Made by a program: the position numbers
Origin: a virus
Taxonomy: Duplodnaviria; Heunggongvirae; Uroviricota; Caudoviricetes
DNA: 24,933 bases
Virus record (IMG/VR): IMGVR_UViG_2859810971_000004
Strand: one strand, 5' to 3'
Part shown: positions 18,001 to 21,000 of the stretch, piece after piece
How the letters are laid out: each line of letters begins with the position of its first letter
Numbering within the stretch: position 1 is the first letter of the stretch

Positions 18001-21000
18001 ATTGTTTAATGTGCAAGTACAATGACTTTTATTTTTTGTTGTGTATATAATCAAATATATGGTTATTTTTCACCCTGCGTATTCAGCACGCAACAAAAAA
18101 CCCGCCGAAGCGGGTTTAGTGCGGGTGCGTTGAGGATGCCTGACACATGAGAGGTGGCGAGGGATTTCTCCCCCGCCTGGTCTCTTACTCCTCAGGTTCG
18201 TAAGCTGTGAAGACAGCGACCTCCGTCTGGCCGGTTCGGATTCGTACCTCGCAGAGGTCTTTCCTCGTTACCAGTGCCGTCACTATGACGGTTAAACAGA
18301 TGACGATCAGGGCGATTAACATCGCCTTTTGCTGCTTCATAGCCTGCTTCTCCTTGCCTTTCGGCACGTAAGAGGCTAACCTACATTTGTGAGACATAGA
18401 TTGGGCCTCAGATTAATGTTAAGCGTCTTGCAGGACGCGTAATGTTAACTGGGGCTTTTCTCTGTCTGCCTTACAGTGGCATGCCCGAGGCAGACAGCCT
18501 CAAGCACCCGCAGCAATCTTACCGATACCGATAAGAAAACGCTATTTTTTATTGCCAGCACCTTCTATCCAGGCTAATTTATCTGCGTCAGAACGGCGCA
18601 ATGCGCTCGCCTGAGATACGTTTACTTGCCATGGTAACAACAGGTAACGGCAATTGCTGTTTCTGTTTTGTTTCCTTCAAAAACCCCGGACCATCAATCC
18701 GGGGTTTTTGTTTGTTAACCCCAACGGCAAATCGAATACACCACCAGCGCCACCGCCATCGCAATTCCTACCGTGGTGAATGCCTCAGGCCAGGTCATTG
18801 ATTCACCTCCTGCGGTGGTTCCGGTAGCGGCATCCAGTGAGTTGAGCTCTCTACTTCAACGCCGTCTTTGTCCACAAAAGCCATCTTATTCCCGCCACGA
18901 GTGGGGCAAAAAACCTTATCCCAGGAACCGGGAATACATTCCCGAGATCATCGAGAAGAATCACATCGCAATATTCAGCAGGAACTGCATCACTACAGCT
19001 TATCCAGCCAGCCAGAGTTACCGGAGAGTTGCCAGCCTTACGCATGGCCATTTCCACGATTTCAACCATATCTCCTGGTGGAATTTTACAAAGTTGCCCA
19101 ATACATTTCTGCTGCCTGGCATATTCGAGAATGTGCTCCAGTTTGGTTCGATTAATCATTATTTATCTCCCTTAAGCATGGCAGCGCGGCAGGCGTTCCA
19201 GCCATCAACATAATCAAACGTATTACTATCGTTTGGCCCGATTTCATCCGGCACTATCGGCTCTGGTTGGATAGTGACGTTGGCAAAGGCAGCACGCAAA
19301 CCGGTTTTAATTTCTTCGATTTCATCAGAGCCAAGCGATGAATCTGACAGTGCGTGATGGAATGCGTAAGCCATGTCGTCGTTTACTGCAACCGGCACTG
19401 CCGGCGCTGCGTAAAGCGGTGTTATATCTGCCCGAAAATCACATGCTTTATGCAGTCGTACCCAACGCTCAACTTCCGCTTTGTAAAAATATATAGCAGT
19501 GAACGTATTAGATTCCTGGTCAACTTGAGTAAACGTCACCTTCCACGCTACAGCTACGGCTTTCCATCCATCAGGTTGTCGCATTCGCGGGGCAGCATAA
19601 AGCTCATGCATTCCATCAGGCAGCGAGTGACCCACATACTCACCGAACCCGTCAATACACATGCCCCCATCTTCAACAATGCATTCCGCTACAGGCTCTG
19701 CTTCCAGTGATGCCAGAGCGATAAGCGCCAGTTCACGAATTTCACCGCCGTCTATATCGTCAATATCATCGCGGCCAGAAATGTTAGCCAGCCATTGCAG
19801 TCGCTCTTTGGTAATAGTAGTCATGCCGTAGCCCCTTCTTGATATTTTTCAAACCAGAACACAACCGGGTCAGATTTCATTTCAACCAATCCCATACGAA
19901 CCAGCGCTTTGCCTTTCCCGGACGCAAGGAATTCACGACGACCATCACTGATAATTCGTCGATAATCTTCCAGGCTACTGCAATGCTTGTGCAGATTGCA
20001 TGGGTGGCATTCTGGTACCATGTTGGATATATCGTCACGTTCCTGGTGAAGCATATTTCCATCAAAACGAATGACCGGTTTTACATGGTCTGCATGCCAC
20101 TTTTCGCCAAGTTTGCAGCCGCAATAAGCGCAGCGACCACCGAACTTCATGCGCAGTTCTGCACGTTGTTTTTTCGTCAGTGCCATATCAGCTTTCCTTA
20201 TACGGATTAATTTTATTGTGCAGTGTGTTGAATGACGCCCATACCACGTCGTTATACAATTCAATAACTGGCTCAATTATTTTTCCGATTATCCAGACAA
20301 AAATTTGCGGGGATATCGGTGTCATCAACACGATAAACAGAATGAGAAACAGGAATTCTGTTGTTCTACTCTTTCGCGGATATTTTTTTCTAAATAATGT
20401 AACCATTCATTACCGCCCTTTCGGGCGGTCTCCTGATGATTTGAGGGTGCAGAAATCCCTCCGGTTAAGGATTAAATTTTTAACAGTGCTAAATTTAATT
20501 ATTCAGTTCTGGATTTTGTCGCCCTGCGTATCCGCGCTTTCGCGTTACGCTCAATCTGTATCAGCTTTTCTATATTTCTCCGCCTTTCCTGTTCCTCCTG
20601 GCGCAATAGCCTTACATCATCTGCCAGTCTGGTTTCTCTTTTTGCCACAGAGAGCATCCAGTCAAACGGCTCCACAACCGCACCGCAGATTTTACAGCGG
20701 ACCTGACGCTCTTTTTCGTCAACCCGTACAGAGGCGTGATGGCAATATGGTCTTTCCGATGGCTTATAAAGAAAATTAACCTGATTACGAGGGTCATCCT
20801 CTTTTATCGGAAATAAAACGATATTGCTTAACTCATCTTCTGGTTTTATTTCCATGCTCCTCTCCTTTGATGCGAATGCCAGCGGTAATTGAAGCCTGAT
20901 AGCTAATTTCATTCACAGTATCGCCTCCTGAAAATTACCCTGATAGAAAGCCAGTACACGCTGCATAGCTTCGCTCTTCCGGCACTCGCGACAGATTATA

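Follow-up and report, generated by a model that had tools for sequence, protein, structure and literature searches.

In E. coli K-12 the toxin gene hokD is the third gene of the relB-relE-hokD operon. A gene of the same type is present in the window, which in this report denotes the whole stretch of 24,933 nucleotides of the Caudoviricetes record IMGVR_UViG_2859810971_000004, and here it is placed between two terminators with neither relB nor relE beside it. The original prediction described it as an orphan, an independently transcribed hok unit that would need its own antisense control, with none annotated. The locus raises the question of whether the toxin is encoded alone or together with an antitoxin. 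Very probably, positions 18095–18525 represent a complete type I toxin-antitoxin cassette, a hok/mok/sok unit of the hokD/hokW clade in the early-right (nin) region of a lambdoid prophage remnant full of IS elements, and the K-12 operon is a derivative of this arrangement. The cassette adds one more example to a well-described system and in that sense is already known.

The hok gene and its transcription unit

A Hok peptide of 51 amino acids is encoded on the minus strand at 18340–18185. It is a member of the Pfam family HOK_GEF (PF01848) with an E-value of 1.2e-23 and a score of 82.9 bits (cutoff 22). The peptide had been taken for HokD/RelF, and it is indeed identical to K-12 HokD; none of the 156 nucleotides of the coding sequence differs between the two loci. 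Expression of the HokD peptide is toxic (bioRxiv 10.1101/2025.08.07.668861). The Shine-Dalgarno (SD) sequence GGAG (18353–18350, minus strand) is found 9 nt 5' of the ATG, in agreement with the good SD noted before.

The relB-relE-hokD (relBEF) operon has relB and relE immediately upstream of hokD. This is not the case here, as had been predicted. Searching the whole window with K-12 RelB and RelE by tblastn gave only noise (best E-values of 0.49 and 2.9, neither in 18340–18850). A blastn search with relBE DNA resulted in a single match of 14 nt (18354–18341), directly in front of the hok ATG. A relE or relB remnant in 18340–18850, named at the outset as evidence that would speak against a separate hok unit, was not found, and these searches with K-12 RelB, RelE and relBE DNA lead us to reject it.

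Upstream, a hairpin terminator is located at 18678–18710 (13-bp stem with 7 G-C pairs, detected in the plus-strand scan), practically where a bidirectional terminator had been proposed (18679–18709). On the minus strand this hairpin reads CCCCGGA...TCCGGGG and is followed by TTTTT. Calling it bidirectional is therefore reasonable. The scan set no minus-strand flag at this site, as it counts the A/T runs as part of the stem. The terminator would set the hok unit apart from the nin-region genes upstream of it and, on the plus strand, halt read-through as well. The second terminator, expected after the gene, is the intrinsic terminator of the hok mRNA (18117–18098, minus strand). It consists of an 8-bp stem and a T-run and is common to this locus and the hokD gene of the K-12 Qin prophage. 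The view of an independently transcribed hok unit between two terminators is thus borne out.

The putative hok promoter has the −10 sequence TAAGAT (18516–18521, minus strand), 6 nt 5' of the predicted start of the hok mRNA. The alignment shows hexamers of the −10 type at this position in hokC (TATAAT), IncY hokD (TACAAT), R1-type hok (TATGAT) and 933W (TAGAAT), and the position is conserved across five divergent loci. No convincing −35 sequence was found for this promoter. A simple sigma-70 consensus scan of 17900–18900 flagged neither the hok promoter nor the sok promoter described below, so both assignments rest on homology and positional conservation.

A search of 18340–18680 with hok/sok RNA models had been proposed. 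The Rfam scan, run at the gathering threshold, revealed a match to RF01794 on the hok-sense strand at 18509–18335, which covers the full length of the model (positions 1–157) with 118.1 bits and an E-value of 1e-26 (gathering score 59). The 157-nt model is labeled 'sok antitoxin, CssrC'. It also matches the hok-sense strand of K-12 hokC and of hokW from phage 933W, both of which have their Sok annotation on the other strand. For this reason RF01794 must be regarded as a model of the hok mRNA leader. By sequence comparison it spans the region from the predicted 5' end of the hok mRNA (GGGUGCUUGAGG) to the hok AUG.

The predicted full-length hok mRNA comprises 415 nt (18509–18095, minus strand). 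Its 5' end is derived from the start of the RF01794 alignment and from homology, its 3' end from the terminator. The minimum free energy (MFE) of this RNA is −175.4 kcal/mol with a fold z-score of −7.9. The 5' end is formed by the tac element GGGTGCTTGAGG (18498–18509, minus strand), and the 3' untranslated region (UTR) contains the complementary fbi element CCTCAACGCACCC (18123–18135, minus strand). In silico, nucleotides 1–12 (tac) pair with nucleotides 375–387 (fbi) in the MFE and in the centroid fold. Compared with R1-type hok, the alignment shows compensatory differences in this pair of elements (GGGUGC/GCACCC vs GGCGC/GCGCC). A leader stem-loop at 18497–18462 (minus strand; 10+3 bp in the MFE fold) represents the upper part of the tac stem-loop and corresponds to the leader hairpin predicted at 18461–18497. 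It is followed by the ucb anti-SD box AAGCCCC (18451–18457, minus strand), whose partner in the fold of the full-length RNA is the mok SD.

A hairpin at 18372–18409 (minus strand) holds the mok SD and the mok ATG and is the putative target of Sok. It is defined by the Rfam consensus structure, by the fold of the truncated RNA and by the sequence; its loop CUCACAA contains the YUNR-type motif CUCA. In silico shortening of the hok RNA to 365 or 355 nt leads to pairing of tac with ucb, and the mok SD enters the GAGGC...GCCUC stem of this target hairpin, identical to the Rfam consensus structure. The 365-nt truncation point is an assumption borrowed from R1. Truncation to 374 nt results in a different fold, which implies that the exact point of 3' processing matters.

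The mok frame and the Sok antisense gene

A mok open reading frame of 70 codons, overlooked in the original prediction together with tac, fbi and ucb, starts with the ATG at 18397–18395 and extends to 18185 on the minus strand. It is in frame with hok, overlaps it and ends at the same stop codon. The mok SD is GAGG (18409–18406, minus strand). The offset of 57 nt between the two start codons and the common stop codon match the annotated K-12 mokC/hokC pair, and the geometry is also the same in the annotated mokW/hokW pair of 933W. Mok and MokW differ in residues 2–4 and in their C-terminal residues.

On the opposite (plus) strand, the start positions of the annotated sokC and sokB genes both map to 18389 in the alignment, and the annotated 71-nt sokW of 933W maps onto 18389–18459 with 64 of 71 positions identical. 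A Sok antisense RNA gene of 71 nt is therefore assigned to 18389–18459. The predicted sok promoter (18354–18382, plus strand) is composed of the −35 sequence TTGCCT (18354–18359), a 17-nt spacer and the −10 sequence TAACCT (18377–18382). The latter is located 6 nt 5' of the Sok start and matches the consensus at three of six positions; the promoter as a whole is the same as the sequence upstream of 933W sokW. In its predicted fold (−29.2 kcal/mol, z = −5.3) the Sok RNA begins with a single-stranded 5' tail of 14 nt, continues with a long hairpin and ends in UUUU. This 5' tail shows complementarity to the start codon of mok and to the target-hairpin loop. Judged by its sequence, the locus has an antisense Sok gene in cis, with a promoter of its own and complementarity to the translation-initiation region of mok.

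These features bear directly on the proposal of an orphan hok toxin that was split from relBE and has no antitoxin of its own. This proposal would account for the lack of relBE and for RefSeq-style annotation, which gives the hokD coding sequence only. It is scarcely credible in view of the Sok gene and promoter, which agree with three independently annotated Sok genes, and of the strong Rfam match of the leader; moreover, it is the K-12 form that lost sok. The original prediction was correct in that the hok unit needs antisense control, and the Sok gene that can provide it lies at 18389–18459 on the plus strand. At the level of the sequence, the absence of such an antitoxin is thereby refuted. 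The remark that none is annotated holds for RefSeq/PGAP records, which list only the hokD coding sequence. It does not hold for the records of 933W and VT2-Sakai, in which mokW, hokW and sokW are annotated.

Relation to known hok/sok systems

Among the closest known systems is hokW-mokW-sokW of the phages 933W and VT2-Sakai (Sp5). It shows 92.8% nucleotide identity over 18517–18118, a stretch that begins in the −10 region and ends shortly after fbi. The 933W locus also encodes a 51-residue Hok, a 70-residue in-frame Mok and a 71-nt Sok, with an identical sok promoter. The last residues of Hok are TAYEPEE here and VDYESEK in HokW. Seven of the 71 positions of Sok differ from sokW, and five of these are within the first 10 nt, the recognition tail. 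The terminator and the flanking regions of the 933W cassette are different, and it is situated near the right end of the prophage instead of the nin region. The hokW-sokW pair of Sp5 is a functional type I system in which HokW is toxic and sokW, transcribed from its own promoter, neutralizes it (PMC8621323). SokW has 71 nt and acts in part through RNase III and Hfq (PMC8621323). The membership of the present locus in this class is settled by the match to the Rfam model and the 92.8% identity to a validated locus. By analogy to hokW-sokW and the HokD peptide, toxicity of Hok, neutralization by Sok and cleavage of the duplex by RNase III are predicted for it.

The K-12 hokC/mokC/sokC (gef) locus has the same architecture, with an in-frame mok and Sok in the same position, and its Rfam match scores 118.3 bits. 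SokC comprises only 59 nt; the Sok hairpin of the hokD/hokW clade carries an 18-nt extension. K-12 hokC is directly followed by IS186. The plasmid-borne hok/sok (parB) system of R1, for which post-segregational killing has been demonstrated, is built from the same components (tac, fbi, ucb, mok SD, target hairpin and antisense Sok), although the overall sequence similarity in the alignment is low. As we read the R1-type sequence, mok and hok are not in the same frame in R1, whereas they are here. The mechanism of R1 has been described (PMC9841398). In silico, the folds of the present RNA mirror the closed/open switch of R1 at lengths of 365 and 355 nt but not at 374 nt.

The relationship to K-12 hokD was analyzed by comparison with Qin relBEF, as had been suggested. 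Homology to Qin starts at AGGAGAAGCAGGCT-ATG, 14 nt before the hok ATG, and runs on through the 3' UTR and the terminator. Upstream of this point Qin has the 3' end of relE, and the Qin locus has no Rfam leader match. K-12 hokD is thus a truncated derivative. The sok promoter is absent from Qin because the homology starts at 18354. Both loci share the hok coding sequence, the hok SD, the 3' UTR with fbi and the terminator, and both occupy analogous sites within a lambdoid prophage, namely its nin region. In contrast, the hok promoter, tac, ucb, the mok start, the Sok target and the sok promoter are present here and missing from Qin. The alignment indicates that in K-12 everything upstream of the hok SD, namely the leader, the mok start and the sok promoter, was replaced by relBE. 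The original prediction implicitly treated the relBE arrangement as the norm; the polarity is the reverse, K-12 relB-relE-hokD being the derived state. A truncated hokD agrees with a statement in PMC12214031 (citing Pedersen & Gerdes 1999), in which all K-12 hok loci except hokB are described as having lost their activity through IS elements or through rearrangements by which canonical components of the toxin-antitoxin system were removed. The genes downstream of hokD in K-12 (rem and ydfU) have no counterpart here at the sequence level. An 83-residue open reading frame downstream of the cassette (17697–17948) was considered as a rem homologue and rejected, as tblastn with K-12 Rem shows no similarity.

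The sequence and the folding predictions, interpreted according to the R1 paradigm (PMC9841398), suggest the following mechanism. A weak constitutive promoter would produce the stable 415-nt hok mRNA. In the full-length RNA the 5' tac element would pair with fbi at the 3' end and ucb would hide the mok SD, so that the RNA would be neither translated nor bound by Sok. Slow trimming of the 3' end would remove fbi, upon which tac would pair with ucb and the mok SD would shift into the target hairpin. Translation of mok, in frame with hok, would then permit synthesis of Hok. The short and unstable 71-nt Sok, transcribed from the opposite strand, would pair through its 5' tail with the mok start and the hairpin loop. 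This pairing would block translation of mok and hok and mark the duplex for RNase III. Upon loss of the locus or reduced transcription of sok, Sok would decay first and Hok would depolarize the inner membrane.

Distribution, prophage context and possible roles

Of 5426 complete E. coli genomes, 4005 (~74%) contain the 431-nt unit from promoter to terminator with at least 80% coverage, the median being 2 places per genome with any match. Coverage of the relE-hokD junction is found in 1164 of the 5426. The leader-bearing form is therefore ~3.4 times more common than the K-12 type of junction. The 431-nt unit is likewise present in 79 phage records, among them Stx phages, mEp460-like phages and a Rac-type fragment, and on phage-plasmid-like replicons.

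In intact E. coli prophages a DUF551 gene is followed by the hok cassette, a small hypothetical gene and DUF1367, DUF1364 and DUF1133 genes. The window keeps this order with three changes: the DUF551 gene is frameshifted, IS1 directly follows the small gene, and many other IS copies are present. The IS elements of the surrounding prophage are IS1, five copies of the IS3 family, IS2 and IS66. A search with exact terminal-repeat patterns of IS1 gave no match in the sequence, and the IS1 boundary was set where the alignment with E. coli breaks. The neighboring prophage genes (DnaC-like loader, HNH, DUF551 and DUF1367) are all on the hok strand. Over 8 kb including IS1, the window shares 99.7% identity with Shigella flexneri SFBU1023 and with ECMA0423, a 4.44-Mb genome designated 'E. 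coli'. It also contains an ipaH effector gene. On the basis of this identity and of ipaH, we assign the window to a lambdoid prophage remnant of the Shigella flexneri type.

The degraded surroundings suggest that the cassette, intact as it looks, could be a silent relic which hitch-hikes in a decaying prophage, its hok mRNA being too weakly expressed or never activated. The frameshifted DUF551 gene and the insertions of IS1, five IS3-family elements, IS2 and IS66 are consistent with this explanation, as is a hok promoter that is weak or not recognized by the scan. Furthermore, a summary in bioRxiv 10.1101/2025.08.07.668861 states that chromosomal hokA, hokB and hokC show neither post-segregational killing nor a response to rifampicin, and as these loci are reported to be inert in this respect, the physiological activity of the present cassette is uncertain. 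All regulatory elements are intact, though, and nearly identical to those of the functional hokW-sokW; the toxin has no substitution compared with the toxic HokD; and occurrence of the full-length form in about three quarters of the complete E. coli genomes is hard to reconcile with neutrality. A silent relic is thus conceivable but unlikely.

A role as an accessory of lysis or induction rather than as an addiction module was considered as well. In this case anti-terminated read-through across 18678–18710 would disturb the convergent sok promoter and yield a 5'-extended hok RNA without the tac/fbi lock, and early Hok would speed up lysis and release. [quoted passage not shown] Under these conditions hokW-sokW leads to faster lysis and approximately doubles the release of phage (PMC8621323). 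The common strand of hok and all neighboring prophage genes and the same synteny in intact E. coli prophages fit such a role. The 933W cassette, however, is located near the right end, outside the nin region, which argues that an early-operon position is not required for the published effect. In addition, the prophage described here is defective, so that induction may no longer occur, and the read-through step is purely conjectural. We give this role a rather low probability. Lower still is that of its most specific version, in which a cassette in the nin region, directly behind a terminator and in the same orientation as the early-right phage operon, acts as an induction-coupled switch: N/Q-type anti-terminated read-through would occlude the convergent sok promoter and produce the 5'-extended hok RNA free of the tac/fbi lock, which would tie induction to early Hok and the timing of lysis. 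If this speculative reading were true, the way in which differences between Sok paralogues cluster in the 5' tail (five of the seven differences from sokW in the first 10 nt) would keep the switch of each prophage private.

With respect to the hok/mok/sok cassette itself, the relBE-hokD arrangement of K-12 is a misleading reference: hokD-type genes are normally self-contained hok/mok/sok cassettes of lambdoid prophages. Automatic annotation usually gives the toxin coding sequence alone, and mok and sok belong beside hokD in such annotations. RF01794 bears the name of sok but models the leader in hok sense, and the strand of a match is opposite to that of the Sok RNA. In Shigella, the cassette may help to retain the ipaH-carrying prophage remnant.

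Prophage architecture and insertion sequences

An IpaH-family T3SS E3 ubiquitin-ligase effector gene is located at 2942-4657 (plus strand; NCBIfam IpaH_Shig, E 8e-170) and is adjoined by the sRNA CssrB (2631-2813, minus strand; Rfam RF02799, 145.7 bits). Each of the two is typical of Shigella ipaH prophage islands. Two phage immunity/anti-Q-type RNA clusters of isrK / C4-antisense (plus c4-a1b1) are present, one at 11704-11892 (plus strand) and the other, inverted with respect to the first, at 15189-15390 (minus strand). Their arrangement suggests a head-to-head fusion of two prophage fragments, with IS copies at the junction.

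Five copies of an IS3-family element of ~1264 bp (487-1753, 5406-6670, 9082-10352, 13833-15098 and 23396-24665) are 99.3-99.8% identical, and one of them is inverted. The window also contains an IS66-family transposase (6985-8586), an IS2 transposase (12938-13810) and a 558-bp direct repeat (12491-13047 and 22843-23400). IS1 occupies ~16930-17694, with the insA/insB ORFs at 16982-17257 and 17176-17679, and is inserted directly after the stop codon of an 83-aa ORF (17697-17948). Downstream of hok, this insertion is separated from the terminator of the gene by ~400 bp and leaves the hok 3' UTR intact, unlike the IS insertions that adjoin hokA, hokC and hokE in K-12.

The hok transcript and its upstream neighbors

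Compared to E. coli FDAARGOS_944, the DUF551 gene upstream of hok (18795-19159, minus strand) carries a 1-nt deletion at ~18932 (CCCC to CCC). The deletion splits the reading frame into ORFs of 102 aa and 29 aa, and the gene is thus a pseudogene. An unannotated hydrophobic ORF of 27 aa (MTWPEAFTTVGIAMAVALVVYSICRWG; 18715-18798, minus strand) overlaps the DUF551 stop codon with its start (ATGA), and its end abuts the hairpin terminator at 18678-18710. No Pfam match was found for this ORF. It is kept in two E. coli prophages and may encode a small membrane peptide.

In K-12, ~6% of the hokD mRNA reportedly undergoes A-to-I editing, which recodes Tyr to Cys (PMC12214031). This site is kept in the hok gene of the window: the Tyr47 codon (18200-18202, minus strand) lies in the context GCUUACGAA, which includes UACG, the core motif linked to editing by TadA. 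The hok 3' UTR, comprising fbi and the terminator (18095-18176, minus strand), matches isrK below the threshold (30.6 bits, E 1.4e-4; gathering score 50), probably through a mere hairpin-plus-terminator resemblance.

Strand and recognition tail of Sok

The Rfam family RF01794, named 'sok antitoxin', matches the hok-sense strand in the window (18335-18509, minus strand), at the K-12 hokC locus L007 (502-654, minus strand) and at the phage 933W hokW locus L009 (1509-1683, plus strand). The annotated sokC and sokW are located on the strand opposite to these matches and are only 59-71 nt long. What the 157-nt model effectively describes is the leader of the hok mRNA; therefore, the strand of an RF01794 match should not be read as that of Sok.

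Sok of the window differs from the 933W sokW at 7 of 71 nt. Five of these differences fall within the first 10 nt (18389-18398, plus strand), which are part of the single-stranded recognition tail, and the differences in the tail correspond to mok codons 2-4 (Mok residues SHK versus LNT). The same region is variable in other paralogues, namely the Rac-type, IncY and hokC loci. This variation may reflect a diversification of specificity against cross-talk among the several hok/sok copies per genome.
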